Shown here: positions 9,070 through 55,152 of the stretch, piece after piece
Layout of the letters: each line of letters begins with the position of its first letter
How positions within the stretch are numbered: the stretch's first letter is position 1
Virus record (IMG/VR): IMGVR_UViG_2913112809_000002
Length of the DNA: 64,000 nt
Strand: one strand, 5' to 3'
Origin: a virus
Lineage: Duplodnaviria; Heunggongvirae; Uroviricota; Caudoviricetes
The notes under the pieces: generated by a model
The model's database searches: none
The model's input: only the letters and a program-made list of their open reading frames with translations
What the model was told of the DNA's origin: nothing
Translations under genes and position numbers: made by a program

Positions 9070-9345
9070 TCAGAACGCTCGGTTGCCGCCGGGCGTTTTT
9101 TTATTGGTGAGTCCATCCAATGCATACTTAAAAGCCCTGCTAATCGGACTGATGTCTGATGCCATTCCAAAAGCACACAAGACCGAAGCAATAAATCTCC
9201 AGTCCGTTCTGCTTATCTTCGATTCATGACAGCCAATCATCTTTGCCAGACCGCGCTGGGTAAGCGTTGACAGGTTGATGAGTAAATCTGTTTCTGCGCG
9301 ATCAACGTCGCGCTGTGATAGTTTGCTGCAGCTTGTTTGTTCCAT
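9070..9345 (-). CDS. CII-like transcriptional activator
   Basis: 91 aa; HTH-like segment GLAKMIGCHESKISRTDWRF and ...NKKTPGGN resemble lambda CII; correct position. Confidence 0.5.
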   Translation of the reverse strand: MEQTSCSKLSQRDVDRAETDLLINLSTLTQRGLAKMIGCHESKISRTDWRFIASVLCAFGMASDISPISRAFKYALDGLTNKKTPGGNRAF

Positions 9346-18945: not shown

Positions 18946-19504
18946 ATGACCACTCAGATTTCTGTCGAAACTCTTTCCCCAATTACACACAACCAAATTC
19001 CCGTTATCACTACCGAGTTACTGGCACAGCTTTACTGTACCGAGATCAACAACATCAAAGTAAATTACACCCGTAATTCCGAGCGTTTTGTTGAGGGTAA
19101 ACACTTTTTCAAGATTGTTGGTGATGAGTTGAAAAAATTTGCGGGTTACTTTAAGTAACTCACAAACGCCTGTTTCCCCCAAAACCCGCTCCCTCATCCT
19201 CTGGACAGAACGCGGAGCAGCCCGCCACGCAAAAATGCTGGAAACCGAGCAGGCGTGGGAAGTGTTCGAAAAACTGGAAGACTGTTATTTCAGTCAGAAA
19301 CGCCCGGAAGAAAAAGCACCGGATTTTATGCCACGCCGCTTTCTTCTCACTCTGGTCAATAACCAGTGGTATGTTGAGCCTGTGTCTGCTGATGCGTTTG
19401 TGGCAACGCCGGACTCACTGGTGGCCAGGCTTCAGGCCGAGAGATATCTGTTCGATCAGCAGAGCATAAAGGAGATCATCCAGACCTGCCTGAAGATGAT
19501 TTAA
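18946..19504 (+). pseudogene. ORF6N/Rha-type antirepressor-like gene split over two frames
   Basis: First frame ends ...GDELKKFAGYFK*, second frame continues ...RSLILWTERGAARHAKMLETEQAWEVFEKLED. Confidence 0.35.
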
Positions 19505-20373: not shown

Positions 20374-20934
20374 GTGAGAGCATTACTGACACCTGAAATT
20401 GCCCCGCGTATGGGGATCGTACTGTTCAGGCCAGGTTCAGAGCTGATGCCATTGTTTATGCAGGGGCGTGTCTTGCTGGAGCCTGAGCCGGAACGTTATT
20501 CATCTTTTGCCAGTGGTGTCGTTCCGGCGGCATCGCAACCGCTGGCGGATGATCCTGTCGTTCGGGCCGTATTCCGCAATGAGGCAGTGATCCGTCGTGC
20601 AGGTGGCGTGGAATGCCTTGAAAGCTGGTTACTTCGTGAAAAAGGCTGTCAGTGGCCTCATTCTGACTGGCACAGCGAGAACATGACCACAATGCGTCAC
20701 GCGCCGGGAGCAATCCGTTTGTGCTGGCACTGCGATAATCAACTGCGCGATCAGTTCACAGAACGGTTGGAATCAATGGCAACGGATAACTGCGTCCGTT
20801 GGGTGTTGTCTGTTGTCCGTCGGGATCTCGGTTTTGATGAAAGTCACGTTGTGACAATGCCGGAACTGTGTTGGTGGCTGGTTCGTAATGACCTGGCGGA
20901 TGCCTTACCTGAAAGCGCAGCCCGTAGGCTCTGA
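20374..20934 (+). CDS. DUF968-like protein, N-terminal portion
   Basis: 186-aa ORF; may be first half of a split ydfU-like gene. Confidence 0.4.
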   Translation: MRALLTPEIAPRMGIVLFRPGSELMPLFMQGRVLLEPEPERYSSFASGVVPAASQPLADDPVVRAVFRNEAVIRRAGGVECLESWLLREKGCQWPHSDWHSENMTTMRHAPGAIRLCWHCDNQLRDQFTERLESMATDNCVRWVLSVVRRDLGFDESHVVTMPELCWWLVRNDLADALPESAARRL

Positions 20935-23148: not shown

Positions 23149-23420
23149 TTCTTCTCCGGACAAAAAAAAGACACGAGCATCCTGGAATACTCGTGGGACA
23201 AGGTACTTGGTTAGCAATTTGCGAGAGGGTGAAAAAAATGGCGCGGCTGTCGGATTAAAGCCGCGGGACAAAGTCCATGAAGAATAATAAGTATCAGTCT
23301 CCTACAGGAGACGAGTTGATATTACTAAGCTTTAAAAATGGTTTAAATCCTCAGATTAACCTTAATTTCAGGTAAGTCTTATTTCATTTCTTCGCGCCGC
23401 GCCCGGCGCACATCAAAAAC

Positions 23421-24037: not shown

Positions 24038-24583
24038 ATGGTGTGCTGGTGGCGATGGTGCTGGTCGTGCTCCGGCCTTTACTGCGCAAATCTGAATAAC
24101 ACCACACAAAAGGCATCTGCGGGTGCCTTTGACGGGGTGTTGTTTTTTACGGGCCGCTGGTGGCCCTTTTTTATTTGCAGGAGAAGTTATGGCAGCAGAA
24201 CCTTGTCTGGTGGCGGGGCGGTGGGGCTGACGATAGGTGGAGCCAGTGTATTCGGGATTCTGACCAACACCGATTTCGGCGTGGTTATTGGCGCGTTTGC
24301 AGGGGCGCTTTTTGTTGTCACACAGCAAAAGGAAGTGCCTGTCTGGCGGATGTGTATCCACCTGCTGGTTGCTTTCGTGGTTGGCGTACTTGGTGCGGGT
24401 GTGGCTGCGTCTTTCATGCAGTGGTTAACGCACTACGACGACAAGCCACTGGACGCTCTGTGTGCGGTTGGTGTTTCAGCCCTGTCAATTAAGGCGCTGA
24501 CGTTCCTGTATCAGCAGGAGATTACATCGCTGTTCGGTTTTCTGACGAAGCTGCGCGGCGGAGGAGGAGGAAATGGTAAGTGA
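24038..24583 (+). CDS. Membrane protein (2-3 TM), possible holin/antiholin; start uncertain
   Basis: Hydrophobic segments; good RBS+ATG at 24189 is in a different frame. Confidence 0.3.
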   Translation: MVCWWRWCWSCSGLYCANLNNTTQKASAGAFDGVLFFTGRWWPFFICRRSYGSRTLSGGGAVGLTIGGASVFGILTNTDFGVVIGAFAGALFVVTQQKEVPVWRMCIHLLVAFVVGVLGAGVAASFMQWLTHYDDKPLDALCAVGVSALSIKALTFLYQQEITSLFGFLTKLRGGGGGNGK

Positions 24584-27789: not shown

Positions 27790-28035
27790 ATGACAGCTGC
27801 TAAAGAGCAGATTGAATATGAGCTAAATGTATTCTTCGCGTCCGCCCTTGGTGATGTGTTTAAAAGTTGCCGACTGGCTGAAAGCGTATTGGATTACCAG
27901 ATTTCTACTGTTAGTTTTCCAACGGAAAAAAACGCCTGGCTGGAGCTAGGTGAATTACCCGTGATTATCGAGTTGTCTAACGGACGTCGCTTTGAGATTA
28001 GTGCGTCTGAATGGTTGCAAATCACACCGCTTTAA
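27790..28035 (+). CDS. Hypothetical protein near cos
   Basis: 81-aa ORF upstream of cos. Confidence 0.3.
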   Translation: MTAAKEQIEYELNVFFASALGDVFKSCRLAESVLDYQISTVSFPTEKNAWLELGELPVIIELSNGRRFEISASEWLQITPL

Positions 28036-28111
28036 ATTAAGCCCGCTGCCCACCTTGGCTACAGGCATACGCTTAGTGGCTGGGTCCTTTCCGGCGATCC
28101 GGCAGGCTACG

Positions 28112-28123
28112 GGGCGTCAGGCG
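28112..28123. other. cos: cosN-like cohesive-end site (gggcgtcaggcg), with lambda-like cosB flank
   Basis: Flank cgcgggttttcgctatttatgaaaaatttccggtttaaggcg matches lambda left end as recalled; 12-mer differs from lambda GGGCGGCGACCT. Confidence 0.55.
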
Positions 28124-28300
28124 CGCGGGTTTTCGCTATTTATGAAAAATTTCCGGTTTAAGGCGTTTCCGTTCTTCTTCGTCGTAACTTAATGTTTTTA
28201 TTTAAAACACCCCCTGAAAAGAAAGGAAACGACAGGTGCTGAAAACGGGCTTTTTGGCCTCTGTCGTTTCCTTTCTCTGTTTTTGTCCGTGGAATGAACA

Positions 28301-28820
28301 ATGGAAGTCAACAAAAAGCAGCTGGCTGACATTTTCGGCGCGAGTATCCGTACCATTCAGAACTGGCAGGAGCAGGGAATGCCCGTTCTGCGAGGCGGTG
28401 GGAAGGGTAATGAGGTGCTTTATGACTCTGCCGCCGTCATAAAATGGTATGCCGAAAGGGATGCTGAAATTGAGAACGAAAAGCTGCGCCGGGAGGTTGA
28501 AGAACTGCGACAGGCCAGCGAGACAGATCTCCAGCCAGGGACTATTGAGTACGAACGCCATCGACTTACGCGTGCGCAGGCCGACGCACAGGAGCTGAAA
28601 AATGCCAGAGACTCCGCTGAAGTGGTGGAAACTGCATTCTGTACTTTCGTGCTGTCGCGGATCGCAGGTGAAATTGCCAGTATTCTCGACGGGATCCCCC
28701 TGTCGGTGCAGCGGCGTTTTCCGGAACTGGAAAACCGACATGTTGATTTCCTGAAACGAGATATCATCAAAGCCATGAACAAAGCATCCGCGCTGGATGA
28801 ACTGATACCGGGGTTGCTGA

Positions 28821-28846
<26 letters not shown>
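28301..28846 (+). CDS. Nu1: Terminase small subunit Nu1
   Basis: MEVNKKQLADIFGASIRTIQNWQEQGMPVLRGGGKGNEVLYD... matches lambda Nu1. Confidence 0.95.
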
Positions 28847-32527
<3,681 letters not shown>

Positions 32528-32547
<20 letters not shown>

Positions 32548-33847
32548 TCTCCCGCATATTGCCAGTATGGCCTTTAATGAGCCGCTGATGCTTGAACCCG
32601 CCTATGCGCGGGTTTTCTTTTGTGCGCTTGCAGGCCAGCTTGGGATCAGCCGCCTGACGGATGCGGTGTCCGGCGACAGCCTGACTGCCGGAGAGGCACC
32701 CGCGACGCTGGCGTTATCCGGTGATGATGGCGGGCCACGACAGGCCCGCAGTTATCAGGTCATGAACGGCATCGCCGTGCTGCCGGTGTCCGGCACGCTG
32801 GTCAGCCGGACGCGGGCGCTGCAGCCGTATTCGGGGATGACCGGTTACAACGGCATTATCGCCCGTCTGCAACAGGCTGCCAGTGACCCGATGGTGGACG
32901 GCATTCTGCTCGATATGGATACGCCAGGCGGAATGGTGGCGGGGGCATTTGACTGCGCTGACATCATCGCCCGTGTGCGTGACATAAAGCCGGTATGGGC
33001 GCTGGCCAACGACATGAACTGCAGTGCAGGTCAGCTGCTTGCCAGTGCCGCCTCCCGGCGTCTGGTCACGCAGACCGCACGGACAGGCTCCATCGGCGTC
33101 ATGATGGCTCACAGTAATTACGGTGCTGCGCTGGAGAAACAGGGCGTGGAAATCACGCTAATTTACAGCGGCAGCCATAAGGTGGATGGCAACCCCTACA
33201 GCCATCTTCCGGATGACGTCCGGGAGACACTGCAGTCCCGGATGGATGCAACCCGCCAGATGTTTGCGCAGAAGGTGTCGGCATATACCGGCCTGTCCGT
33301 GCAGGCTGTGCTGGATACCGAGGCTGCAGTGTACAGCGGTCAGGAGGCCATTGATGCCGGACTGGCTGATGAACTTGTTAACAGCACCGATGCGATCACC
33401 GTCATGCGTGATGCACTGGATGCACGTAAATCCCGTCTCTCAGGAGGGCGAATGACCAAAGAGACTCAATCAACAACTGTTTCAGCCACTGCTTCGCAGG
33501 CTGACATCACCACCGTGGTGCAAGCGACGGAGGGCGAAAACGCCAGCGCGGCGCAGCCGGACGTGAACGCGCAGATCACCGCAGCGGTTGCGGCAGAAAA
33601 CAGCCGCATTATGGGGATCCTCAACTGTGAGGAGGCCCACGGACGCGAAGAACAGGCACGCGTGCTGGCAGAAACCCCCGGAATGACCGTGGAAACGGCC
33701 CGCCGCATTCTGACCGCAGCACCACAGAGTGCACAGGCGCGCAGTGACACTGCGCTGGATCGTCTGATGCAGGGGGCACCGGCACCGCTGGCTGCAGGTA
33801 ACCCGGCATCTGATGCCGTTAACGATTTGCTGAACACACCAGTGTAA
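32528..33847 (+). CDS. C: Capsid assembly protease C (Nu3 scaffold nested at 3' end)
   Basis: GTG start giving (M)TAELRNLPHIASMAFNEPLMLEPAYARVFF... as lambda gpC. Confidence 0.8.
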
Positions 33848-33856
33848 GGGATGTTT

Positions 33857-34189
33857 ATGACGAGCAAAGAAACCTTTACCCATTACCAGCCGCTGGGCAA
33901 CAGTGACCCGGCTCATACCGCAACCGCGCCCGGCGGATTGAGTGCGAAAGCGCCTGCAATGACCCCGCTGATGCTGGACACCGCCACCCGTAAGCTGGTT
34001 GCGTGGGATGGCACCACCGACGGTGCTGCCGTTGGCATTCTGGCGGTCGCTGCTGACCAGACCAGCACCACGCTGACGTTCTACAAGTCCGGCACGTTCC
34101 GTTATGAGGATGTGCTCTGGCCGGAGGCTGCCAGCGACGAGACGAAAAAACGGACCGCGTTTGCCGGAACGGCAATCAGCATCGTTTAA
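33857..34189 (+). CDS. D: Capsid decoration protein D
   Basis: [41 protein letters not shown]... Confidence 0.9.
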
Positions 34190-34244
34190 CTTTACCCTTC
34201 ATCACTAAAGGCCGCCTGTGCGGCTTTTTTTACGGGATTTTTTT

Positions 34245-35270
34245 ATGTCGATGTACACAACCGCCCAGCTGCTGGCGGCAAATGAGCAGAAATTTAAGTT
34301 TGATCCGCTGTTTCTGCGTCTCTTTTTCCGTGAGAGCTATCCCTTCACCACGGAGAAAGTCTATCTCTCACAAATTCCGGGACTGGTAAACATGGCGCTG
34401 TACGTTTCGCCGATTGTTTCCGGTGAGGTTATCCGCTCCCGTGGCGGCTCCACCTCTGAATTTACGCCGGGATATGTCAAACCCAAGCATGAAGTGAATC
34501 CGCAGATGACCCTGCGTCGCCTGCCGGATGAAGATCCGCAGAATCTGGCGGACCCGGCTTACCGTCGCCGTCGCATCATCATGCAGAACATGCGTGACGA
34601 AGAGCTGGCCATTGCCCAGGTCGAAGAGATGCAGGCAGTTTCTGCCGTGCTTAAGGGCAAATACACCATGACCGGTGAAGCCTTCGATCCGGTTGAGGTG
34701 GATATGGGCCGCAGTGCGGCGAATAACATCACGCAGTCCGGCGGCACGGAGTGGAGCAAGCGTGACAAGTCCACGTATGACCCGACCGACGATATCGAAA
34801 CTTACGCGCTGAACGCCAGCGGTGTGGTGAATATCATCGTGTTTGACCCGAAAGGCTGGGCGCTGTTCCGTTCCTTCAAGGCCGTCAGGGAGAAGCTGGA
34901 TACCCGTCGCGGCTCTCATTCCGAGCTGGAGACAGCGGTGAAAGACCTGGGTAAAGCGGTGTCCTATAAGGGGATGTATGGCGATGTGGCCATCGTCGTG
35001 TATTCCGGACAGTACGTGGAAAACGGTGTCAAAAAGAACTTCCTGCCGGACAACACGATGGTGCTTGGGAACACTCAGGCACGCGGTCTGCGCACCTATG
35101 GCTGTATTCAGGATGCGGATGCATTGAGTGAGGGTATTAATGCGTCTCCTCGTTATCCGAAAAACTGGAAGACATCCGGCGATCCGGCGCGTGAGTTCAC
35201 CATGATTCAGTCAGCACCGCTGATGCTGCTGGCTGATCCTGATGAGTTCGTGTCCGTACAACTGGCGTAA
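34245..35270 (+). CDS. E: Major capsid protein E
   Basis: MSMYTTAQLLAANEQKFKFDPLFLRLFFRESYPF... Confidence 0.95.
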   Translation: MSMYTTAQLLAANEQKFKFDPLFLRLFFRESYPFTTEKVYLSQIPGLVNMALYVSPIVSGEVIRSRGGSTSEFTPGYVKPKHEVNPQMTLRRLPDEDPQNLADPAYRRRRIIMQNMRDEELAIAQVEEMQAVSAVLKGKYTMTGEAFDPVEVDMGRSAANNITQSGGTEWSKRDKSTYDPTDDIETYALNASGVVNIIVFDPKGWALFRSFKAVREKLDTRRGSHSELETAVKDLGKAVSYKGMYGDVAIVVYSGQYVENGVKKNFLPDNTMVLGNTQARGLRTYGCIQDADALSEGINASPRYPKNWKTSGDPAREFTMIQSAPLMLLADPDEFVSVQLA

Positions 35271-35311
35271 TCATGGCCCTTCGGGGCCATTTTCTCTCTG
35301 TGGAGGAGTCC

Positions 35312-35707
35312 ATGACGAAAGATGAACTGATTGCCCGTCTCCGCTCGCTGGGTGAACAACTGAACCGTGATGTCAGCCTGACGGGGACGAAAGAAGAACT
35401 GGCGCTCCGTGTGGCAGAGCTGGAAGAGGAGCTTGATGACACGGATGACACTGCCGGTCAGGACACCCCTCTCAGCCCGGAAAATGTGCTGACCGGGCAT
35501 GAAAATGAGGTGGTATCAGCGCAGCCGGATACCGTGATTGATACGGCTGAACTGGTCACGGTCGTGGCACTGGTGACGCTGCATACCGATGCACTTCACG
35601 CCACGCGGGATGAACCTGTGGCATTTGTGCTGCCGGGAACGGCGTTTCGTGTCTCTGCCGGTGTGGCAGCCGAAATGACAGCGCGTAGCCTGGCCAGAAT
35701 GCAATAA
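35312..35707 (+). CDS. FI: DNA packaging protein FI
   Basis: MTKDELIARLRSLGEQLNRDVSLTGTKEELALRVAELEEELDD... Confidence 0.9.
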   Translation: MTKDELIARLRSLGEQLNRDVSLTGTKEELALRVAELEEELDDTDDTAGQDTPLSPENVLTGHENEVVSAQPDTVIDTAELVTVVALVTLHTDALHATRDEPVAFVLPGTAFRVSAGVAAEMTARSLARMQ

Positions 35708-35718
35708 CGGGAGGCGCT

Positions 35719-36072
35719 GTGGCTGATTTCGATAACCTGTTCGATGCTGCCATTACCCGCGCCGATGAAACGATACGCGGGTACATGGGAATGTCAGCCA
35801 TCATTACATCCGGTGAGCAGTCAGGTGTTGTGATACGTGGTGTTTTTGATGACCCTGAAAATATCAGCTATGCCGGACAGGGCGTGCGCGTTGAAGGCTC
35901 CAGCCCGTCCCTGTTTGTCCGGACTGATGAGGTGCGGCAGCTGCGGCGTGGAGACACGCTGACCATCGGTGAGGAAAACTTCTGGGTAGACCGGGTTTCG
36001 CCGGATGATGGCGGAAGCTGTCATCTCTGGCTTGGGCGTGGCGTGCCGCCTGCCGTTAACCGTCGCCGCTGA
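35719..36072 (+). CDS. FII: Head completion protein FII
   Basis: GTG start; (M)ADFDNLFDAAITRADETIRGYMG... Confidence 0.9.
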   Translation: MADFDNLFDAAITRADETIRGYMGMSAIITSGEQSGVVIRGVFDDPENISYAGQGVRVEGSSPSLFVRTDEVRQLRRGDTLTIGEENFWVDRVSPDDGGSCHLWLGRGVPPAVNRRR

Positions 36073-36083
36073 AGGGAGGATGT

Positions 36084-36662
36084 ATGGCCATAAAAGGTCT
36101 TGAGCAGGCCGTTGAAAACCTCAGCCGTATCAGCAGAACGGCGGTGCCCGGTGCCGCCGCAATGGCCATTAACCGCGTTGCTTCATCCGCGATATCGCAG
36201 TCGGCGTCACAGGTTGCCCGTGAGACAAAGGTACGCCGGAAACTGGTAAAGGAAAGGGCCAGGCTGAAAAGGGCCACGGTCAAAAATCCGCAGGCCAGAA
36301 TCAAAGTTAACCGGGGGGATTTGCCCGTAATCAAGCTGGGTAATGCGCGGGTTGTCCTGTCCCGCCGCAGGCGTCGTAAAAAGGGGCAGCGTTCATCCCT
36401 GAAAGGTGGCGGTAGCGTGCTTGTGGTGGGAAACCGTCGTATTTCTGGCGCGTTTATTCAGCAACTGAAAAATGGCCGGTGGCATGTTATGCAGCGTGTG
36501 GCCGGGAAAAACCGTTACCCCATTGATGTGGTGAAAATCCCGATGGCGGTGCCACTGACCACGGCGTTTAAACAGAATATTGAGCGGATACGGCGTGAGC
36601 GTCTTCCGAAAGAGCTGGGCTATGCGCTGCAGCATCAACTGAGAATGGTAATAAAGCGATGA
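36084..36662 (+). CDS. Z: Tail completion protein Z
   Basis: 192 aa MAIKGLEQAVENLSRISRTAVPGAAAMAINRV... Confidence 0.9.
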   Translation: MAIKGLEQAVENLSRISRTAVPGAAAMAINRVASSAISQSASQVARETKVRRKLVKERARLKRATVKNPQARIKVNRGDLPVIKLGNARVVLSRRRRRKKGQRSSLKGGGSVLVVGNRRISGAFIQQLKNGRWHVMQRVAGKNRYPIDVVKIPMAVPLTTAFKQNIERIRRERLPKELGYALQHQLRMVIKR

Positions 36663-37817: not shown

Positions 37818-38240
37818 ATGTTCCTGAAAACCGAATCATTTGAATATAACGGCGTGACCGTCACGCTTTCTGAACTGTCAGCCCTGCAGCGTATTGAGCA
37901 TCTTGCCTGGTTGAAAGAGCAGGAAAAAAAGGCTGAATCCAGTGGCAACCTGCAGGTGTCTGTAGAGGATCTTATCAGAGGCGGGGCGTTTCTGGTGGCG
38001 ATGTCTCTGTGGCATAACCATCCGCAGAAGACAAAGCTGCTGTCCATGAATGAAGCCATTACGCAGATTGAGCAGGAAGTGCTTACCACCTGGCCCACGG
38101 AGGCAATTGCTCAGGCTGAAAACGTGGTGCTACGTCTGTCCGGAATGTCTGAGTTTGTGGTGAATAATGCCCCTGAACAGGCAGAGGACGCCGGGCCTGC
38201 AGAGCCTGTTTCTGCGGGAAAGTGTTCGACGGTGAGCTGA
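37818..38240 (+). CDS. G: Tail assembly chaperone G
   Basis: 140 aa MFLKTESFEYNGVTVTLSELSALQRIEHLAWL... Confidence 0.9.
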   Translation: MFLKTESFEYNGVTVTLSELSALQRIEHLAWLKEQEKKAESSGNLQVSVEDLIRGGAFLVAMSLWHNHPQKTKLLSMNEAITQIEQEVLTTWPTEAIAQAENVVLRLSGMSEFVVNNAPEQAEDAGPAEPVSAGKCSTVS

Positions 38241-38656
38241 GTTTTGCCCTGAAACTGGCGCGTGAGATGGGGCGACCCGACTGGCGCGCCATGCTTGCCG
38301 GGATGTCATCCACGGAGTATGCCGACTGGCACCGTTTTTACAGTACCCATTATTTTCATGATGTTCTGCTGGATATGCACTTTTCCGGGCTGACGTACAC
38401 CGTGCTCAGCCTGTTTTTCAGCGATCCGGAGATGCATCCGCTGGATTTCAGTCTGCTGAATCGGTGTGAGGCTGACGAAGAGCCTGAAGATGATGTGCTG
38501 ATGCAGAAAGCGGCAGGGCTTGCCGGAGGCGTCCGCTTTGGTCCGGACGGGAATAAAGTTATCCCCGCTTCCCCGGATGTGGCGGACATGACGGAGGATG
38601 ACGTAATGCTGATGACAGTATCAGAAGGGATCGCAGGAGGAGTCCGGTATGGCTGA
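37818..38656 (+). CDS. G-T: Tail assembly chaperone GT, made by programmed -1 frameshift at G GGA AAG (38214..38220)
   Basis: Slippery heptamer gggaaag at end of G; T frame (38222..38656) has no independent RBS. Confidence 0.75.
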
Positions 38657-41209
38657 ACCGGTAGGCGATCTGGTCGTTGATTTAAGTCTGGATGCGGCCA
38701 GATTTGACGAGCAGATGGCCAGAGTCAGGCGTCATTTTTCCGGTACGGAAAGTGATGCGAAAAAACAGCGGCAGTCGTTGAACAGTCGCTGAGCCGACAG
38801 GCGCTGGCTGCACAGAAAGCGGGGATTTCCGTCGGGCAGTATAAAGCCGCCATGCGAATGCTGCCTGCACAGTTCACCGACGTGGCCACGCAGCTTGCAG
38901 GCGGGCAAAGCCCGTGGCTGATCCTGCTGCAACAGGGTGGTCAGGTTAAGGACTCCTTCGGCGGGATGATCCCCATGTTCCGGGGGCTTGCCGGTGCGAT
39001 CACCCTGCCGATGGTCGGGGCCACCTCGCTGGCGGTGGCGACCGGTGCGCTGGCGTATGCCTGGTATCAGGGTAACTCAACCCTGTCCGATTTCAACAAA
39101 ACGCTGGTCCTTTCCGGTCATCAGTCAGGTCTGACGGCAGATCGTATGCTGGTCCTGTCCAGAGCCGGACAGGCGGCAGGGCTGACGTTTAACCAGACCA
39201 GCGAGTCACTCAGCGCACTGGTTAAGGCGGGGGTAAGCGGTGAGGCTCAGATTGCGTCCATCAGCCAGAGTGTGGCGCGTTTCTCCTCTGCATCCGGTGT
39301 GGAGGTGAACAAGGTCGCTGAAGCCTTCGGGAAGCTGACCACAGACCCGACGTCGGGGCTGACGGCGATGGCACGCCAGTTCCATAACGTGACGGCGGAA
39401 CAGATTGCGTATGTTGCTCAGTTGCAGCGTTCCGGCGATGAAGCCGGGGCATTGCAGGCGGCGAACGAGGCCGCAACGAAAGGGTTTGATGACCAGACCC
39501 GACGCCTGAAAGAGAACATGGGCACGCTGGAAACCTGGGCAGACAGGACAGCACGGGCATTCAAATCCATGTGGGATGCGGTGCTGGATATTGGTCGTCC
39601 TGATACCGCTCAGGAGATGCTGATTAAGGCAGAGGCTGCGTTTAAGAAAGCGGACGACATCTGGAATCTGCGCAAGGATGATTATTTTGTTAACGATGAA
39701 GCGCGGGCGCGTTACTGGGATGATCGTGAAAAGGCCCGTCTTGCGCTTGAAGCCGCCCGAAAGAAGGCTGAACAGCAGAGTCAACAGGACAAAAATGCGC
39801 AGCAGCAGAGCGATACCGAAGCGTCACGGCTGAAATATACCGAAGAGGCGCAGAAGGCTTACGAACGACTGCAGACGCCGCTGGAGAAATATACCGCCCG
39901 TCAGGAAGAACTGAATAAGGCACTGAAAGACGGGAAAATCCTGCAGGCAGATTACAACACGCTGATGGCGGCGGCGAAAAAGGATTATGAAGCGACGCTG
40001 AAAAAGCCGAAACAGTCCGGCGTGAAGGTGTCTGCGGGCGATCGTCAGGAAGACAGTGCTCATGTTGCCCTGCTGACGCTTCAGGCAGAACTCCGGACGC
40101 TGGAGAAACATGCCGGAGCGAATGAGAAAATCAGCCAGCAGCGCCGGGATTTGTGGAAGGCAGAAAGTCAGTTCGCGGTACTGGAGGAGGCGGCACAACG
40201 TCGCCAGCTGTCCGCACAGGAGAAATCCCTGCTGGCGCATAAAGATGAGACGCTGGAGTACAAACGCCAGCTGGCTGCACTTGGTGACAAGGTTACGTAT
40301 CAGGAGCGCCTGAACGCGCTGGCGCAGCAGGCGGATAAATTCGCACAGCAGCAACGGGCAAAACGGGCAGCCATTGAGGCGAAAAACCGGGGGCTGACTG
40401 ACCGGCAGGCAGCGCGGGACGCCACGGAACAGCGCCTGAAGGAACAGTATGGCGATAATCCTCTGGCGCTGAATAACGTCATGTCAGAGCAGAAAAAGAC
40501 CTGGGCGGCTGAAGACCAGCTTCGCGGGAGCTGGATGGCAGGCCTCAAGTCTGGCTGGAGTGAGTGGGAAGAGAGCGCCACGGACAGTATGTCGCAGGTT
40601 AAAAGTGCTGCCACGCAGACCTTTGATGGTATTGCACAGAATATGGCGGCGATGCTGACCGGCAGTGAGCAGAACTGGCGCAGCTTCACCCGTTCCGTGC
40701 TGTCCATGATGACAGAAATTCTGCTTAAGCAGGCAATGGTGGGGATTGTCGGGAGTATCGGCAGCGCCATTGGCGGTGCTGCCAGTAGTGGCGCATCAGC
40801 GTCTGGTGGTACAGCCATTCAGGCAGCTGCGGCGAAATTCCATTTTGCGACCGGGGGATTTACGGGAACCGGCGGCAAATATGAGCCTGCGGGGATTGTT
40901 CACCGTGGTGAATTTGTCTTCACGAAGGAGGCAACCAGCCGGATTGGCGTGGGGAATCTCTACCGGCTGATGCGCGGCTATGCCACCGGTGGTTATGTCG
41001 GTACACCGGGCAGCCTGGCGGACAGCCGGTCGCAGGCGTCCGGGAAGTTTGAGCAGAATAACCATGTGGTGATTAATAACGACGGCACGAACGGTCAGAT
41101 AGGTCCGGCTGCTCTGAAGGCGGTGTATGACATGGCCCGCAAGGGTGCCCGTGATGAAATTCAGACACAGATGCGTGATGGTGGCCTGTTCTCCGGAGGT
41201 GGACGATGA
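38649..41209 (+). pseudogene. H: Tail tape measure protein H, frame broken in poly-A tract near 38760..38765
   Basis: Frame from ATG 38649 (MAEPVGDLVVDL...SGTESDAKK) hits a stop at 38788; homology resumes in -1 frame (...RQALAAQKAGISVGQYKAAMRMLPAQ...); six A here versus seven in lambda as recalled. Confidence 0.75.
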
Positions 41210-42982: not shown

Positions 42983-43551
42983 AAACGGGGGCTGAAGCCA
43001 TCCGCGCACTGGCCACACAGCTCCCGGCGTTTCGTCAGAAACTGAGCGACGGCTGGTATCAGGTACGGATTGCCGGGCGGGACGTCAGCACGTCCGGGTT
43101 AACGGCGCAGTTACATGAGACTCTGCCTGATGGCGCTGTGATTCATATTGTTCCCAGAGTCGCCGGGGCCAAGTCAGGTGGCGTATTCCAGATTGTCCTG
43201 GGAGCAGCCGCCATTGCCGGATCATTCTTTACTGCCGGAGCCACCCTTGCAGCGTGGGGGGCAGCCATTGGGGCCGGTGGTATGACCGGCATCCTGTTTT
43301 CTCTCGGTGCCAGTATGGTGCTCGGTGGTGTGGCCCAGATGCTGGCACCGAAAGCCAGAACTCCCCGTACACAGACAACGGATAACGGTAAGCAGAACAC
43401 CTATTTCTCCTCACTGGATAACATGGTTGCCCAGGGCAATGTTATGCCTGTTCTGTATGGTGAAATGCGCGTGGGGTCACGTGTGGCATCTCAGGAGATC
43501 AGCACGGCAGACGAAGGGGACGGTGGTCAGGTTGTGGTGATTGGTCGCTGA
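42880..43551 (+). CDS. I: Tail tip assembly protein I
   Basis: 223 aa MAATHTLPLASPGMARICLYGDLQRFGRRIDLRVKTG... Confidence 0.9.
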   Translation: MAATHTLPLASPGMARICLYGDLQRFGRRIDLRVKTGAEAIRALATQLPAFRQKLSDGWYQVRIAGRDVSTSGLTAQLHETLPDGAVIHIVPRVAGAKSGGVFQIVLGAAAIAGSFFTAGATLAAWGAAIGAGGMTGILFSLGASMVLGGVAQMLAPKARTPRTQTTDNGKQNTYFSSLDNMVAQGNVMPVLYGEMRVGSRVASQEISTADEGDGGQVVVIGR

Positions 43552-43611
43552 TGCAAAATGTTTTATGTGAAACCGCCTCCGGGCGGTTTTGTCGTTTATG
43601 GAGCATGACGA

Positions 43612-46600
43612 ATGGGTAAAGGCAGCAGTAAGGGGCATACCCCGCGCGAAGCAAAGGACAACCTGAAGTCCACGCAGTTGCTGAGTGTGATCGATGCCAT
43701 CAGCGAAGGGCCGATAGAAGGTCCGGTGGATGGATTAAAAAGCGTGCTGCTGAACAGTACACCGGTGCTGGACAGTGAGGGAAATACCAACATCTCCGGC
43801 GTCACGGTGGTGTTCCGGGCAGGTGAGCAGGAACAGACACCGCCGGAGGGTTTTGAATCCTCCGGATCCGAGACGGTGCTGGGTACGGAAGTGAAATACG
43901 ACACGCCGATCACCCGGACCATCACGTCGGCAAACATCGACCGTCTGCGCTTTACCTTCGGTGTGCAGGCACTGGTGGAAACCACCTCAAAGGGGGACCG
44001 GAATCCGTCGGAAGTCCGCCTGCTGATTCAGATACAACGTAACGGTGGCTGGGTGACGGAAAAAGACATCACCATTAAGGGCAAAACCACCTCGCAGTAT
44101 CTGGCCTCGGTGGTGGTGGGTAACCTGCCGCCGCGCCCGTTCAACATCCGGATGCGCAGGATGACACCGGACAGCACCACAGACCAGCTGCAGAACAAAA
44201 CGCTCTGGTCGTCATACACCGAAATCATCGATGTGAAACAGTGCTACCCGAACACGGCACTGGTCGGCGTGCAGGTGGATTCGGAGCAGTTCGGCAGCCA
44301 GCAGGTGAGCCGTAATTATCATCTTCGCGGGCGCATTCTGCAGGTGCCGTCGAACTATAACCCGCAGACGCGGCAATACAGCGGTATCTGGGACGGAACG
44401 TTTAAGCCAGCATACAGCGACAATATGGCCTGGTGTCTGTGGGATATGCTGACCCACCCGCGCTACGGCATGGGGAAACGTCTTGGTGCGGCGGATGTGG
44501 ATAAATGGGCGCTGTATGTCATCGGCCAGTACTGCGACCAGTCTGTACCGAATGGTTTTGGTGGCACGGAGCCGCGTATCACCTGTAATGCCTACCTGAC
44601 CACACAGCGTAAGGCGTGGGATGTGCTCAGTGATTTCTGCTCGGCGATGCGCTGTATGCCGGTATGGAACGGGCAGACGCTGACGTTCGTGCAGGACCGA
44701 CCGTCGGATAAGGTGTGGACCTATAACCGCAGTAATGTGGTGACGCCGGATGATGGCGCGCCGTTCCGCTACAGCTTCAGCGCCCTGAAGGACCGCCATA
44801 ATGCCGTTGAGGTGAACTGGATTGACCCGAATAACGGCTGGGAGACAGCGACAGAGCTTGTGGAGGACACGCAGGCCATTGCCCGTTACGGTCGTAACGT
44901 CACGAAGATGGATGCCTTTGGCTGTACCAGTCGGGGGCAGGCGCACCGCGCCGGGCTGTGGCTGATTAAAACGGAGCTGCTGGAAACGCAGACCGTGGAC
45001 TTCAGCGTGGGCGCAGAAGGGCTTCGCCATGTACCGGGCGATGTCATTGAAATCTGTGATGATGACTATGCGGGGATCAGCATCGGCGGGCGTGTGCTGG
45101 CGGTGAACAGCCAGACCCGGACGCTGACGCTCGACCGTGAAATCACGCTGCCATCCTCCGGCACCACGCTGATAAGCCTGGTTGACGGGCAGGGGAATCC
45201 GGTCAGCGTGGAGGTCCAGTCCGTCACCGACGGCGTGAAGGTGAAAGTGAGCCGGGTTCCTGACGGCGTTGCCGAGTACAGCGTGTGGGGGCTGAAGCTG
45301 CCGACGCTGCGCCAGCGCCTGTTCCGCTGCGTGAGTATCCGTGAGAATGACGACGGCACGTATGCCATCACCGCTGTGCAGCATGTGCCGGAGAAAGAGG
45401 CCATCGTGGATAACGGGGCGCACTTTGACGGCGACCAGAGCGGCACGGTGAATGGTGTCACGCCGCCAGCGGTGCAGCACCTGACCGCAGAAGTCACCGC
45501 AGACAGCGGGGAATACCAGGTGCTGGCGCGCTGGGATACGCCGAAGGTGGTGAGGGGGGTGAGCTTTATGCTTCGCCTGACCGTGGCAGCGGATGACGGC
45601 AGTGAGCGGCTGGTCAGCACGGCCAGGACGACGGAAACCACATACCGCTTCACGCAACTGGCGCTGGGAAATTACAGGCTGACAGTCCGGGCGGTAAATG
45701 CGTGGGGACAGCAGGGCGATCCGGCATCGGTATCGTTCCGGATTGCCGCACCGGCAGCACCGTCGCGGATTGAGCTGACGCCGGGCTATTTTCAGATAAC
45801 CGCCACGCCGCATCTTGCGGTTTATGACCCGACGGTACAGTTTGAGTTCTGGTTCTCGGAAAAGCGGATTGCGGATATCAGGCAGGTTGAAACCACAGCA
45901 CGCTATCTTGGTACGGCGCTGTACTGGATAGCCGCCAGTATCAATATTAAGCCGGGCCATGATTATTATTTTTATATCCGCAGTGTGAATACTGTTGGTA
46001 AATCGGCATTCGTGGAGGCTGTCGGTCGGGCGAGCGATGATGCGGAAGGTTACCTGGATTTTTTCAAAGGCCAGATAACCGAATCCCATCTCGGCAAGGA
46101 GCTGCTGGAAAAAGTCGAGCTGACGGAGGATAACGCCAGCAAACTGGAGGAGTTTTCGAAAGAGTGGAAGGACGCCAACGATAAATGGAATGCCATGTGG
46201 GGCGTCAAAATTGAGCAGACCGAAGACGGCAAACATTATGTCGCGGGGCTTGGCCTCAGCATGGAGGATACAGAGGAAGGCAAACTGAGCCAGTTCCTGG
46301 TTGCCGCTAACCGTATCGCGTTTATTGATCCGTCCAGTGGCAACACGAAACCGATGTTTGTGGCGCAGGGCAACCAGATATTCATGAACGAAGTGTTTCT
46401 GAAATATCTGACGGCTCCCACCATTACCAGCGGCGGTAATCCTCCGTCATTTTCCCTTACACCGGACGGGCGGCTGACGGCGAGAAATGCCGATATCAGC
46501 GGTAACGTGAATGCGAACTCCGGGACGCTCAATAATGTCACGGTAAATGAAAACTGTACGATTAAGGGCATGCTGGAGGCGAACCAGGTCAGAGGTGACT

Positions 46601-47025
46601 TCGTTAAAACTGTATCCAAATCATTCCCGAAACAGGCTGGTACGTGGGGTAACACGGAAACACCAGGCGGGACGGTTACAGTCACCATTTACGATGATCA
46701 TAACTTTGACCGCCAGATTATTATTCCGCCCATTATTTTTAACGGTGTGGCGTATGACGATCCGGGGAGCGGTAATAAACCGGGAGGTACGCGATACACG
46801 GGTTATGGTTTTGAAGTTCGCAAAAACGGCGTATTAATCGCATCCAGAGAAACTAAAGGAGCCATTCCCGGTAGTTACAGTGCGGTTATTGATATGCCGA
46901 GTGGTGGTGGTAGCGTCACTCTGGAGTTTAAGATTTTCCAGAAAGGCAATCGGGGCGCAGGTAACATCACAGACTGTACGGTGATTGTGACCAAAAAAGC
47001 TGCTTCCGGTATCAGTATCCGTTGA
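43612..47025 (+). CDS. J: Central tail fibre / host specificity protein J
   Basis: 1137 aa lambda gpJ-like. Confidence 0.95.
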
Positions 47026-47045
47026 AATATTTATAACCCAAATAC

Positions 47046-47071
47046 GGGCGCCAGAAATGGCGCCTTTTTTA
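47046..47071 (+). terminator. Intrinsic terminator after J
   Basis: ggcgcc-agaaat-ggcgcc hairpin followed by T6. Confidence 0.5.
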
Positions 47072-47094
47072 TTGCAGAAAAGCGAGAGGTAATT

Positions 47095-47694
47095 ATGCGT
47101 AAATTATGTGCTGTTATTCTGTCTGCAGTAGTCTGGCTGGTCGCCGCTGGTACGCCAGCGAGTGCAGCAGAGCATCAGTCCACACTAAGCGGAGGGTATC
47201 TTCAGTCCCATACTGATATGCCCGGCAACGATGACCTGAAGGGCATTAACGTGAAATACCGTTATGAATTTACGGACACGCTGGGGCTGGTGACGTCATT
47301 CAGCTATGCAGGAGACAAGAATCGCCAGATTACCCGTTACAGCGATACCCGCTGGCATGAAGATTCAGTGCGTAACCGCTGGTTCAGCGTGATGGCGGGG
47401 CCGTCTGTACGCGTGAATGAATGGTTCAGTGCTTATGCGATGGCGGGTGTGGCTTACAGCCGTGTTTCGACCTTCTCCGGAGATTATCTCCGCGTAACTG
47501 ATAACAAGGGGAAAACGCACGATGTGCTGACCGGAAGTGATGACGGTCGCCACAGCAACACGTCTCTGGCGTGGGGGGCTGGCGTGCAGTTTAACCCGAC
47601 CGAATCCGTGGCCATTGATATTGCTTATGAAGGTTCCGGCAGTGGCGACTGGCGTACTGACGGTTTCATCGTGGGTGTCGGTTATAAATTCTGA
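47095..47694 (+). CDS. lom: Outer membrane protein Lom (Ail/Lom family, lysogenic conversion)
   Basis: 199 aa with signal peptide and beta-barrel-like alternating pattern, C-terminal ...GVGYKF. Confidence 0.85.
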
Positions 47695-47720
47695 TTAGCC
47701 AGGTAACACAGTGTTATGAC

Positions 47721-47748
47721 AGCCCGCCGGTTCAGGCGGGCTTTTTTG
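47721..47748 (+). terminator. Intrinsic terminator after lom
   Basis: agcccgcc-ggttcag-gcgggct followed by T6. Confidence 0.55.
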
Positions 47749-47752
47749 TGGA

Positions 47753-50158
47753 GTGGATATGGCAGCGGTAAAAATCTCAGGTGTACTGAAAGATGGTGCG
47801 GGAAAACCAATACAGAACTGCACTATTCAACTGAAGGCAAAGCGTAACAGCACCACGGTACTGGTGAACACGGTGGCCTCTGAAAATCCGGATGAAGCCG
47901 GGCGTTACAGCATGGATGTTGAGCATGGCCAGTACAGCGTCACCCTGCTGGTTGAAGGTTTTCCGCCTTCACATGCCGGGACCATTACCGTCTATGAAGG
48001 TTCCAGACCAGGTACGCTGAATGATTTTCTCGGTGCCATGACGGAAGATGATGTCATGCCGGAGGCATTGCGTCGTTTTGAGGAAATGGTGGAAGAAGCG
48101 GCACGCAACGCTGAAGCCGCCTCTCAGAGCGCAGCGGCGGCAAAGAAATCCGAAACTGCAGCGGCATCATCGAAGAACGCGGCGAAAACCTCAGAAACGA
48201 ATGCAGCTAACAGCGCACAGGCGGCAGCGTCCTCGCAGACTGCATCGGCAAACTCCGCGACAGCAGCCAAAAAATCAGAAACCAACGCGAAAAACAGCGA
48301 GACAGCCGCAAAAACGAGTGAAACCAACGCAAAGTCCAGCCAGACGGCAGCGAAAACCAGCGAAACGAATGCCAAAGCCAGTGAAACTGCGGCGAAAAGC
48401 AGTCAGGATGCAGCAGCTGAAAGCGAGAGTGCGGCGGCCGGTTCTGCGACTTCAGCAGCCGGATCAGCAACTGCTGCGGCTAACAGTCAGAAAGCAGCGA
48501 AGACGAGTGAAACTAACGCAAAGTCCAGCCAGACGGCAGCGAAGACCAGCGAAACGAATGCCAAAGCCAGCGAAACTGCGGCGAAAAATAGCCAGAACGC
48601 AGCAGCCGAAAGCGAAAGTGCCGCAGCCGGTTCTGCAAGTGCGGCGGCTACTTCTGCCACTGCATCAGCCAACAGCCAAAAAGCAGCAAAAACCTGTGAA
48701 ACCAACGCAAAGGCGAGCGAAACAGCGGCTGCGAACTCGGCGAAAGCATCGGCAGCAAGCCAGACGGCAGCTAAAGCAAGTGAAGACGCCGCCAGAGAGT
48801 ATGCAAGCCAGGCAGCAGAGCCGTATAAATATGTCTTACAGCCGCTGCCTGATGTGTGGATACCGTTTAACGATTCGCTGGATATGATTACGGGTTTTTC
48901 GCCATCATATAAAAAGATTGTTATTGGTGATGATGAAATAACGATGCCTGGCGATAAGGTTGTAAAGTTTAAACGCGCATCGAAAGCAACCTATATTAAT
49001 AAATCTGGTGTGCTGACAGAGGCTGCCATTGACGAGCCACGATTTGAACGTGATGGCCTGCTTATTGAGGGGCAAAGAACAAACTACATGCTCAATTCGG
49101 AAAACCCTGCCAGTTGGGGGCGATCGTCAAATATGGATGTTCCCGAAACCGGGAAGGACAGTTTTGGTTTTACCTATGGAAAGTTCGTCTGTAACGATTC
49201 TCTGATTGGGCAAACCTCAGCCATTAATATGGCATCAATTGCTGCAACAAAGTCAGTTGATGTATCAGGCGATAATAAATACGTGACAACCTCATGTCGT
49301 TTTAAAACAGAACTGCAGGTAAGGTTGCGTATCCGGTTTGATAAATATGACGGTAGCGCAACAACTTTTCTTGGTGATGCGTATATTGATACACAAACGC
49401 TTGAAATTAATATGACAGGCGGTGCTGCCTCAAGGATTACAGCGAGAGTCAGAAAGGACGAAGCTACCGGATGGATTTTTGCAGAGGCAACAATTCAGGC
49501 AATTGATGGGGAGTTAAAAATAGGTTCTCAGATACAGTATTCTCCTAAGCAGGGCGGGGCAACCGTATCTGGTGACTATATTTATCTGGCCACCCCACAA
49601 GTAGAAAATGGGCCTTGTGTATCATCTTTTATTATATCAGGAACGACGGCGGCGACTCGTGCGAGTGATATGGTTACGATCCCGACCGAAAACAACATTT
49701 ATAACAGACCGCTTACTTGTTTGGTCGAGGTTAACAGGAATTGGGGCGATATTCCCCCTAATGTAGCACCGCGTATTTTTGATTTTTCTGGTGTGCCGCC
49801 TATTGAGTCAATCACATACGCTTTTAACACAACCGAGAAATATTACGGTCAGCTTTATATGCAAACTTATAAAGCGTCGACAAGTAGTTACGTTTCTAGT
49901 TTGTTTACTGGTCGAACTGATGTTCGAAAATTCGTTGGTGGTTTTAATATTTATTCTGATGGTACTAAACGAGTAGTTTCTAACGGTGAGGCTACTAAAA
50001 CTATGAAAACGGAGTGGACGGGCGTAAAAACACGGACCTTTATTCGAATTGGATGTCAAGCCACATCTGGAACTCGTCATCTATTCGGCCATTTGAGAAA
50101 TCTTCGTCTCTGGCATAAAGAATTAACTGATGCGCAAATGGGGGAGAGTATTAAATGA
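47753..50158 (+). CDS. stf: Side tail fibre protein Stf with internal Ala/Ser-rich tandem repeats
   Basis: 801 aa; repeated AAKTSETNAKSSQTAAKTSETNAKASETAAK units. Confidence 0.85.
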   Translation: MDMAAVKISGVLKDGAGKPIQNCTIQLKAKRNSTTVLVNTVASENPDEAGRYSMDVEHGQYSVTLLVEGFPPSHAGTITVYEGSRPGTLNDFLGAMTEDDVMPEALRRFEEMVEEAARNAEAASQSAAAAKKSETAAASSKNAAKTSETNAANSAQAAASSQTASANSATAAKKSETNAKNSETAAKTSETNAKSSQTAAKTSETNAKASETAAKSSQDAAAESESAAAGSATSAAGSATAAANSQKAAKTSETNAKSSQTAAKTSETNAKASETAAKNSQNAAAESESAAAGSASAAATSATASANSQKAAKTCETNAKASETAAANSAKASAASQTAAKASEDAAREYASQAAEPYKYVLQPLPDVWIPFNDSLDMITGFSPSYKKIVIGDDEITMPGDKVVKFKRASKATYINKSGVLTEAAIDEPRFERDGLLIEGQRTNYMLNSENPASWGRSSNMDVPETGKDSFGFTYGKFVCNDSLIGQTSAINMASIAATKSVDVSGDNKYVTTSCRFKTELQVRLRIRFDKYDGSATTFLGDAYIDTQTLEINMTGGAASRITARVRKDEATGWIFAEATIQAIDGELKIGSQIQYSPKQGGATVSGDYIYLATPQVENGPCVSSFIISGTTAATRASDMVTIPTENNIYNRPLTCLVEVNRNWGDIPPNVAPRIFDFSGVPPIESITYAFNTTEKYYGQLYMQTYKASTSSYVSSLFTGRTDVRKFVGGFNIYSDGTKRVVSNGEATKTMKTEWTGVKTRTFIRIGCQATSGTRHLFGHLRNLRLWHKELTDAQMGESIK

Positions 50159-50436
50159 AAGATTTAACACTTAAATTTTCTGACAGGGCCGACTTTTCGG
50201 CCTTTATGGATAGCACTGGCTATTATGATGACGAGTCGATGCAGGATGATATTCTTATTGACGTGGTAGGTAACGTGTACAAAGAAACCGGAGAACTGAC
50301 TGAAGATGGCGAACCGGTATGTGTTAAGGAAGACGGATATTTTGTAAACGTGCGCATCATTAATGATGTGAAAACACCGTCAATATTCGATGAATACGTG
50401 GTTGCTGTTGAGCATCAACTTCGTGGCTGGATGTGA
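50155..50436 (+). CDS. Hypothetical acidic protein between tail fibre genes
   Basis: 93-aa ORF overlapping stf stop. Confidence 0.4.
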   Translation: MKDLTLKFSDRADFSAFMDSTGYYDDESMQDDILIDVVGNVYKETGELTEDGEPVCVKEDGYFVNVRIINDVKTPSIFDEYVVAVEHQLRGWM

Positions 50437-50445
50437 GGAAGAATA

Positions 50446-51486
50446 ATGGCTACATCGACAGTAATTCCTGATGACATCAAAACGCTAAAATCCGATGTTA
50501 GCAAATTAAAAAACGAACAAGGAAGCTACGCAACAAAATCATATGTAGACAGCAAAAATGAAACCGTTGGTGACTGGTCTGCTGCATGGTATCAGCAGGT
50601 ATTGCCAACTAGCGGGGCTATATTTGGGCGAAAACTTCGCTCAACTCACAGGACGGCAGGTGTTGAGGATGCGTATTGCGAACTATACCTTAAAAAATGG
50701 ATAGACAGCCCAGGGAACGCAATGGCGCGCCTTAACCTGAACGATAACGGGACAAACATTTGCTGGGACTTTACCAACCTTTATGGCGGTACGATGATTT
50801 TTCCCGGTGATAGCGGATACCTCAAAATGGGTAACTGCCTTATGTCATACGGCAGGCGTGGAAGTAACGCGCTTATTAAATTTGATTACACCGACACATT
50901 ACAGATCAAATATGCCAATCATGGGTCAACCATGACATTAAACACACAGGGGACCGCTCATTCTGGCGCTACTACTAGTTTGTGGGGTAACTCTACCCGT
51001 CCGGTTGTATATGAAGTTGGTGCTGATGGTGGCGCGTATATGTTCTATGCGCAGAAAAATACCGATAACACCTATATGTTAAGCGTTAATGGTGCATGTC
51101 ATGCCACCGCATTTAACCAGCATTCCGACCGGGATCTGAAAGACAACATTCAGGTGATCGATAATGCAACCGACCGCATCCGTAAAATGAACGGCTATAC
51201 ATACACGCTTAAAGAAAACGGCATACCCTATGCTGGTGTCATTGCACAGGAAGCACTGGAAGCAATCCCAGAAGTTGTAGGTTCCGCAATGAAATATCAG
51301 GACGGTGCAAGCGGATCGGAAGGTGAAGAAGGTGAACGTTATTACACAGTAGATTATTCTGGTGTTACTGGCTTGCTTGTTCAGGTAGCCAGAGAGTCAG
51401 ACGACAGAATAACAGCACTGGAAGAAGAAAACATAGAATTAAAACAAAGATTATCTGCAATTGAGGCGGCGCTTGCGTCTAAATAA
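50446..51486 (+). CDS. Tail fibre/tailspike-like protein with C-terminal S74-type intramolecular chaperone domain
   Basis: C-terminal ...[52 protein letters not shown]... Confidence 0.55.
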
Positions 51487-51500
51487 TATTAAGGGGCCGT

Positions 51501-53530: not shown

Positions 53531-53568
53531 AAAACCAAAAGATAATCGCAGGTTTTAAAGGCTGAAAA

Positions 53569-53817: not shown

Positions 53818-53846
53818 TATTTTTGCGAAAAGATTTTCTGAATTGT

Positions 53847-55086: not shown

Positions 55087-55152
55087 GTGGTCACGTGCCT
55101 TACAGCATGACCGCCGCCACTATAGCTGGTGGACGGCGATCAGGGTTGAACA

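Follow-up and report, generated by a model that had tools for sequence, protein, structure and literature searches.

An apparent frameshift in the tape measure gene H of an Escherichia prophage, probably a homopolymer error of an Ion Torrent draft

The tape measure gene H and its reading frame

The 64,000-nucleotide stretch of DNA analyzed here (the window) carries a lambda-type morphogenesis block with Nu1, A, W, B, C, D, E, FI, FII, Z, U, V, G, T, H, M, L, K, I, J, lom and tail fiber genes. The order V-G-T-H-M-L-K-I-J is that of lambda, placing H between the chaperone genes G/T and the tail-tip gene M, and every open reading frame (ORF) of the block except H has the expected length. As originally predicted, H begins at an ATG at 38649, which overlaps the stop codon of T, and contains a run of six A (A6) at 38760-38765, in the context GCG AAA AAA CAG. 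Three features describe the locus as deposited:

38649..38792, plus strand: apparent truncated H ORF of 47 aa (window translation)
38760..38765, plus strand: A6 homopolymer, the site of an apparent 1-nt deletion, with a true length of most likely seven (sequence; A7 in lambda, PhiR70_1 and a PacBio assembly)
38765..41209, plus strand: remainder of tape measure gene H in the -1 frame (translation; Pfam TMP_2 and Tape_meas_lam_C)

The zero-frame product consists of 39 genuine H residues (MAEPVGDLVVDLSLDAARFDEQMARVRRHFSGTESDAKK) followed by eight out-of-frame residues (QRQSLNSR), and it terminates at a TGA at 38790-38792, two bases beyond the position first reported for it (38788). From 38765, the -1 frame encodes TAAVVEQSLSRQALAAQKAG..., which is the exact lambda H sequence, and this remainder runs to a stop codon at 41207-41209. 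Continuation of H in the -1 frame to 41209 had been part of the original prediction and is borne out by translation. In the remainder, the first in-frame start of the mechanically called ORF is 38852, and the gene caller chose 38858. The deposited window therefore has no single ORF running uninterrupted through about 853 codons but pieces of 47 and about 785 aa; such an ORF is present in a PacBio assembly of the same strain (see below) and is also obtained by adding one A to the tract, which yields an uninterrupted protein of 853 aa with 836 residues identical to lambda H.

The repaired protein and its PacBio counterpart match TMP_2 (PF06791) at 1.2e-68 over profile positions 2-207 of 208 and Tape_meas_lam_C (PF09718) at 3.7e-21, while the window's 785-aa fragment lacks TMP_2 positions 2-16. 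We considered internal re-initiation at the ATG at 38852 or 38858, giving an N-terminally truncated H, and set it aside: no Shine-Dalgarno-like sequence was seen by eye upstream of these codons, and the same TMP_2 positions would be missing from the product.

Alignment to lambda (J02459) and to PhiR70_1 revealed A7 in both at the position of the window's A6, in agreement with the seven A given for lambda in the original prediction, and this was the sole gap in the first 260 aligned columns. Over lambda positions 1-19000 there were eight indels, with only the one at 38760 disrupting a reading frame. The others comprised an intergenic 1-nt gap upstream of Nu1, one 3-nt gap, a 1-nt difference just upstream of the annotated start of lambda K and two compensating +2/-2 pairs in J. 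Judged from these alignments, the H break is the deletion of one base compared with all good-quality relatives examined, and not a chance look-alike. PhiR70_1 (PV340577.1) has its own H annotated in two pieces and was considered as a possible infectious phage sharing the break, but its interruption lies elsewhere, about 140 nt downstream, where a C is missing, and its tract is A7.

Two assemblies of strain E4742

An exact search with the window's J protein hit three contigs, PDHY01000019.1 and VATS01000001.1 among them. The window corresponds to positions 51293-115292 of PDHY01000019.1, to which it is 100% identical over the stretches compared (1-17806, 18821-57025 and 45153-64000). This record belongs to PDHY00000000, the draft genome of Escherichia sp. 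E4742, a cryptic clade II strain isolated in Hong Kong from sediment of the intertidal zone (PMC6639607). Because the source is this cryptic clade II strain, the host-like DNA of the window has an identity of only about 90% with E. coli. The draft was built from single-end Ion Torrent reads of 35-400 nt at 50x coverage, using MIRA and SPAdes, with subsequent ordering against a reference and gaps closed by hand through repeats (PMC6639607). The same laboratory later sequenced E4742 again, on a PacBio RSII at 172x, and obtained with Canu a single contig of 5,120,753 bp (PMC7716201 Table A3).

VATS01000001.1, which is exactly this long (5,120,753 bp), encodes an intact 853-aa H, which appears at NCBI as 'phage tail tape measure protein [Escherichia sp. 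E4742]' (QCT89244.1, TLJ08475.1, WP_138159156.1). The matching length and this protein name tie VATS01000001.1 to E4742. Between window positions 33613 and 53706, the two assemblies have one difference in 20,095 bp, namely A6 versus A7 at 38760, a comparison between separate DNA preparations that leaves a little room for a real difference between cultures. The original prediction had named two options, an error of sequencing in a homopolymer and a real mutation that inactivates the gene; the PacBio A7 strongly favors the former, and we found no evidence in support of the latter. It had also named raw reads with seven A, indicating an assembly error, as grounds for abandoning it, and the independent PacBio assembly supplies this in substance, in place of read pile-ups. 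With A7 and an intact 853-aa H in the PacBio assembly, the suggestion that the phage would be unable to build tails should be dropped.

The draft contig and the PacBio chromosome are not collinear. Positions 1-17808 of the window map to a different prophage, at about 0.07-0.09 Mb, and positions 17529-53706 map to 4.07-4.11 Mb. Positions 53605-64000 map upstream, to about 4.05-4.06 Mb, and represent the integrase end of the same prophage as 17529-53706. The last junction in the window is of attP type, its two sides being joined through a 64-nt core (53643-53706) that forms the 3' part of a tRNA-Ser(tga) gene. On the PacBio chromosome, an intact tRNA-Ser(tga) lies at the right end of the prophage and adjoins the hydrogenase-1 genes, and the integrase end adjoins yccA.

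Across the window, the two assemblies differ at 11 positions, at each of which a mononucleotide run is longer or shorter by one base, and there are no substitutions outside two junction zones. By window position, the alleles are as follows:

9102: Ion Torrent T7, PacBio T6
10905: Ion Torrent A8, PacBio A7
18781: Ion Torrent T7, PacBio T6
19132: Ion Torrent A6, PacBio A5
20927: Ion Torrent G2, PacBio G3
23139: Ion Torrent T8, PacBio T7
23162: Ion Torrent A8, PacBio A7
24201: Ion Torrent C2, PacBio C3
38760: Ion Torrent A6, PacBio A7 (H)
59934: Ion Torrent A8, PacBio A7
60677: Ion Torrent A9, PacBio A8

Discordance rose with run length, from 0% of 2-mers, 0.09% of 3-mers, 0% of 4-mers and 0.45% of 5-mers to 2.7% of 6-mers, 20% of 7-mers (5 of 25) and 50% of 8-mers (1 of 2). 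The PacBio allele is the shorter one at 8 of the 11 sites, so direction alone is silent on which side errs, and the PacBio assembly was assembled with Canu only and may carry homopolymer errors of its own. Simply taking it as the better assembly would be unsafe, given this excess of shorter alleles and six intergenic sites outside the judged set, and our conclusion therefore rests on the five sites with outside arbiters. These are the sites in recognizable genes (cII, ORF6N, DUF968, holin and H); at the other six, which are intergenic or near gene ends, the PacBio allele is shorter. Besides the H tract, the judged sites are:

9096..9102, minus strand: second Ion Torrent homopolymer error, frameshifting the C terminus of a cII-like gene (comparison with lambda CII)
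19132..19137, plus strand: third Ion Torrent homopolymer error, splitting an ORF6N-domain gene (Pfam coverage)
20927..20928, plus strand: fourth Ion Torrent error, splitting a DUF968 gene (Pfam coverage)
24201..24202, plus strand: probable fifth Ion Torrent error, at the start of a holin gene (Pfam coverage)

The PacBio allele was supported at all five. Only this allele gives the cII-like product the C terminus ...TNKKRPAATERSDQIQMEF, which matches the ...TNKKRPAATERSEQIQMEF of lambda CII, and lambda cII has A6 on that strand, the same tract length as the PacBio allele. The PacBio product covers positions 3-86 of the 86 in the Pfam ORF6N profile, versus 3-53 for the window fragment, and DUF968 is covered at 2-171 of 171 by the PacBio product, versus 2-27 and 79-171 by the two window pieces. 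For the holin, the PacBio product matches Phage_holin_8 at 2-121 from residue 3 (81.2 bits) and the window product at 12-121 from residue 64 (75.2 bits). At H, the 853-codon frame is obtained from the PacBio allele only. The draft errors at these judged sites run both ways, with runs called too long as well as too short.

A k-mer-based re-assembly of sequencing run SRR6148341 (Logan) also has A6 at the tract. This run is probably the draft's own read set, since the draft's characteristic alleles at 9102 and 38760 are present in it. A6 is therefore the majority call in those reads and no slip of the assembler. A systematic under-call explains such a majority, and a real A6 in that DNA preparation would too. 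At two further homopolymers (697 and 10905), the re-assembly and the deposited draft have different lengths, and run lengths are thus unstable in the Ion Torrent data set. As a possible third data set over the tract, SRR9056840 (Logan) is identical to the window at 26935-36385 and 43298-48355, stretches that hold neither H nor any discordant site, and look-ups with the 783-aa H fragment and with K did not retrieve its pieces.

For the Ion Torrent PGM, Bragg et al. reported a per-read accuracy of about 68% for 6-mers and a drop in mean flow signal of 0.025 per base of run length, and as the signal falls, under-calls come to prevail among the errors in longer homopolymers (PMC3623719). That a 7-mer is consistently read as a 6-mer is therefore to be expected. 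The H break has the marks of such an artifact: the draft comes from a platform with length-dependent homopolymer errors, the 1-nt change in run length (A6 versus A7) is without counterpart in the independent sequencing of E4742, and similar run-length differences occur elsewhere in the window (11 of 11 sites), with outside references speaking against the draft allele wherever they could be consulted (5 of 5).

The H frameshift is thus very probably an Ion Torrent homopolymer under-call in the draft and no real feature of the prophage. A genuine A7 in a lambda-type H would have been under-called as A6 in the Ion Torrent reads, and these reads would have carried A6 into the consensus of PDHY01. 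In the organism, H would then be a normal, uninterrupted gene of 853 codons with nothing unusual at the tract. We infer that the error at this tract lies on the Ion Torrent side and not in the PacBio consensus. The H gene of the prophage in E4742 is most likely intact, and on sequence grounds its morphogenesis module as a whole appears intact. For this strain, the PacBio record (VATS01 / QCT89244.1) is the one to use.

The A6 allele elsewhere and alternative explanations

We looked for the A6 allele in other genomes. A 61-nt query centered on the tract found matches in 3,489 complete E. coli records, and the exact A6 form occurred in two of these, strains ESBL 15 and ET474, where RefSeq flags 'frameshifted' genes throughout that operon. 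Scanning one genome per species for either allele gave 20 matches, all 20 with A7, most of them low-coverage lambda fragments in unrelated genera and none from the source strain. The exact 47-aa product has been called on 313 contigs (for example, CDL46098.1, EHX84407.1 and EJL15978.1), and in the ten carriers on the longest contigs the neighboring genes are shredded. Together with ESBL 15 and ET474, these ten make up the twelve A6 carriers that we examined, which have 10-83 non-triplet indels relative to lambda Nu1-J. All twelve come from error-laden assemblies, and the length of the tract is therefore repeatedly miscalled where assemblies are error-prone. On homopolymer-prone platforms, the A7 tract of lambda-type H is thus a recurrent source of false 'frameshifted tape measure' genes, and labeling such prophages defective on draft assemblies alone would be wrong.

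It is very unlikely that replication slippage has really removed one A from the prophage, be it in E4742 or in the subculture from which the Ion Torrent library was made, with the PacBio A7 being an insertion error or the state of another subculture. The 47-aa stub would then replace gpH, tails would not assemble and the prophage would be freshly defective. Slippage genuinely concentrates at A-tracts, prophages commonly decay, two assemblies of the Ion Torrent data have A6 as the majority call, and the other morphogenesis genes are all intact, as expected of a very recent mutation. Yet an insertion error would have to have struck the PacBio assembly, correct at all five judged sites, at exactly the base that restores the frame, or else the mutation would have to have become fixed between two cultures of E4742 with nothing else changed in 20 kb. 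Moreover, 20% of the draft's 7-mers are discordant anyway, and A6 is found in no good-quality genome among the 3,489 E. coli records.

Coexistence of A6 and A7 in E4742 cultures through slippage, with each platform reporting a different majority, is highly improbable. It would account for the disagreement between the Ion Torrent and PacBio data at the tract, and the attP-type junction of the draft (53643-53706) might reflect the presence of excised phage DNA in the culture. However, ten other homopolymers in the window disagree likewise, including some in intergenic DNA and in genes without conceivable phase variation, so a general technical cause is sufficient, and there is no known selection by which a 7/6 polymorphism would be kept frequent in a silent prophage gene.

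There is only a very slight chance that A6 is real and that full-length H is made by recoding, either through -1 slippage of tRNA-Lys on G AAA AAA C or through transcriptional slippage. Restoration of the lambda sequence ...AKKTAAVV... would be inefficient but might suffice for a protein of which each tail needs few copies, and slippage by -1 on the second AAA codon would indeed yield the exact lambda protein. Lys codons in A-runs are known slippery sequences, as in dnaX-type sites. However, six A are short for efficient transcriptional slippage, the two-ORF arrangement is not conserved, relatives having A7 and a single ORF (lambda, PhiR70_1, E. coli and the species scan), and the heptamer in the zero frame is G AAA AAA, with no canonical X XXY YYZ site. 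The 80 nt downstream fold no better than shuffled sequences (z = -1.48; 13 of 200 shuffles were as stable). The H tract thus lacks two conserved frames and the pairing of a heptamer with a stimulatory structure that mark a programmed -1 frameshift, and the premise of a real A6 is unlikely in itself. Scarcely credible, too, is a combination in which A6 is real in at least part of the E4742 population and functional full-length gpH comes from low-level -1 slippage of tRNA-Lys or RNA polymerase, which would leave the prophage tail-competent despite the apparent frameshift and make the A-tract a leaky on/off switch for tail production.

Comparison with known systems

A real recoding site lies in the same operon, 540 nt upstream of the H break. 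The programmed -1 site of lambda G/GT, which serves the tail assembly chaperones, is present and intact in the window (GGGAAAG at 38216-38222), and G (37818-38240) overlaps T (38222-38656) at this slippery sequence. The two overlapping ORFs of G/GT are conserved in all relatives, whereas the H break occurs neither in relatives nor in the PacBio assembly of E4742, and there is therefore no second programmed frameshift.

Lambda gpH (J02459 CDS 10542-13103, 853 aa) resembles the H of the window in its position between T and M, in its TMP_2 and Tape_meas_lam_C domains and in an A-tract that codes for ...AKKT..., and the two are equal in length once one A is restored. The difference lies in the deposited sequence, with A7 and one ORF in lambda versus A6 and ORFs of 47 and about 785 aa in the window.

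The closest parallel to the break itself is found in the homopolymer errors of flow chemistry (Ion Torrent and 454), which are likewise one-base errors in run length, become steeply more frequent with run length, favor under-calls in long runs and generate spurious 'frameshifted' genes. We see no substantive difference between these errors and those of the draft, as the draft's over-calling of A/T runs of 5-8 was also observed by Bragg et al. (PMC3623719). The spurious 47-aa 'tape measure protein' entries share with the window the identical sequence and the same change from A7 to A6 in the same tract. They differ in the surrounding damage: over Nu1-J, the window has one frame-breaking indel in place of the 10-83 of the carriers examined, because a consensus from Ion Torrent data at 50x is cleaner than long-read assemblies left uncorrected.

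The 47-aa tape-measure artefact and lambda H sequence in public databases

The 47-aa stub that results when the H tract at 38760-38765 is called as A6 rather than A7 is a recurrent artefact, and it has polluted protein databases. A protein cluster look-up placed this spurious product on 313 contigs, and near-identical 47-aa variants on 25 and 67 more. NCBI, UniRef and other sources list the product under the name 'phage tail tape measure protein' (for example, CDL46098.1, EHX84407.1, EJL15978.1 and GAB7573031.1).

A scan of species-representative contigs also matched the lambda H 35-mer with A7 in assemblies from unrelated genera (loci L003-L022), including Virgibacillus, Neobacillus, Pseudomonas, Kitasatospora, Legionella, Bradyrhizobium, Vibrio and others. 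The matching contigs were often short, with coverage of ~1x, and some were ~48.4-48.5 kb. These matches look like contamination by lambda control or spike-in DNA.

Homopolymer discordances between the two assemblies

Comparison of the Ion Torrent draft with the strain's PacBio chromosome (VATS01000001.1) revealed four additional spurious frameshifts in the draft, each of which the PacBio allele repairs, as lambda CII or Pfam coverage confirms. At another six homopolymers (7-9 nt in the draft), all intergenic or near gene ends, the Ion Torrent sequence was one base longer than PacBio, and part of these may be under-calls by PacBio/Canu.

Homopolymer discordances (window coordinates)
9096-9102, cII-like gene, spurious frameshift; lambda CII
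19132-19137, ORF6N gene, spurious frameshift; Pfam coverage
20927-20928, DUF968 gene, spurious frameshift; Pfam coverage
24201-24202, holin gene, spurious frameshift; Pfam coverage
10898-10905, Ion Torrent longer
18775-18781, Ion Torrent longer
23139-23146, Ion Torrent longer
23162-23169, Ion Torrent longer
59927-59934, Ion Torrent longer
60669-60677, Ion Torrent longer

Contig layout and the attP-type junction

The draft contig and the PacBio chromosome, although from one strain, were non-collinear, with the window falling into three blocks.

1-17808 (first 17.8 kb), separate lambdoid/P22-like prophage, VATS01000001.1 ~0.07-0.09 Mb
17529-53706 (middle), second prophage, VATS01000001.1 4.07-4.11 Mb
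53605-64000 (final 10 kb), integrase/early end of the second prophage

The first switch point lies inside sequence common to both prophages (~17588-17808), and this is probably a mis-join via repeats, since the authors of the draft described manual gap closure. At 53643-53706, an attP-type junction fuses the prophage's tail-fibre end to its own integrase end across a 64-nt core, the 3' portion of tRNA-Ser(tga). The prophage in the PacBio chromosome is instead flanked by yccA and tRNA-Ser/hydrogenase-1 genes (a serT-type site), with an intact tRNA-Ser at its right end (20036-20123 of L037, the fetched locus). The core is shorter than the read length, and the join could therefore derive either from excised circular phage DNA present in the culture or from manual joining in the draft.

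Comparison with lambda and PhiR70_1

The operon's genuine recoding site, the known heptamer of the lambda G/GT programmed -1 frameshift, is conserved in the window and lies 540 nt upstream of the H artefact.

37818-38240, G, overlapping T at GGGAAAG
38216-38222, GGGAAAG heptamer
38222-38656, T

In the deposited genome of phage PhiR70_1 (PV340577.1; locus L001, ~3300-3370), H is likewise in two parts (CDSs of 273 nt and 2244 nt). Both breaks are 1-nt gaps, but that of PhiR70_1, a C missing in GGCGGG, lies ~140 nt downstream of the A-tract; in a phage listed with host E. coli C, it is likely another sequencing error.

Just upstream of the annotated lambda K start, the window carries one base more than the lambda reference (42372; J02459 position 14266), which is also present in the PacBio assembly. 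With this base, K encodes 247 aa with Prok-JAB and NlpC/P60 domains, whereas K is annotated as 199 aa in J02459, and here the odd one out may be the lambda annotation or sequence.
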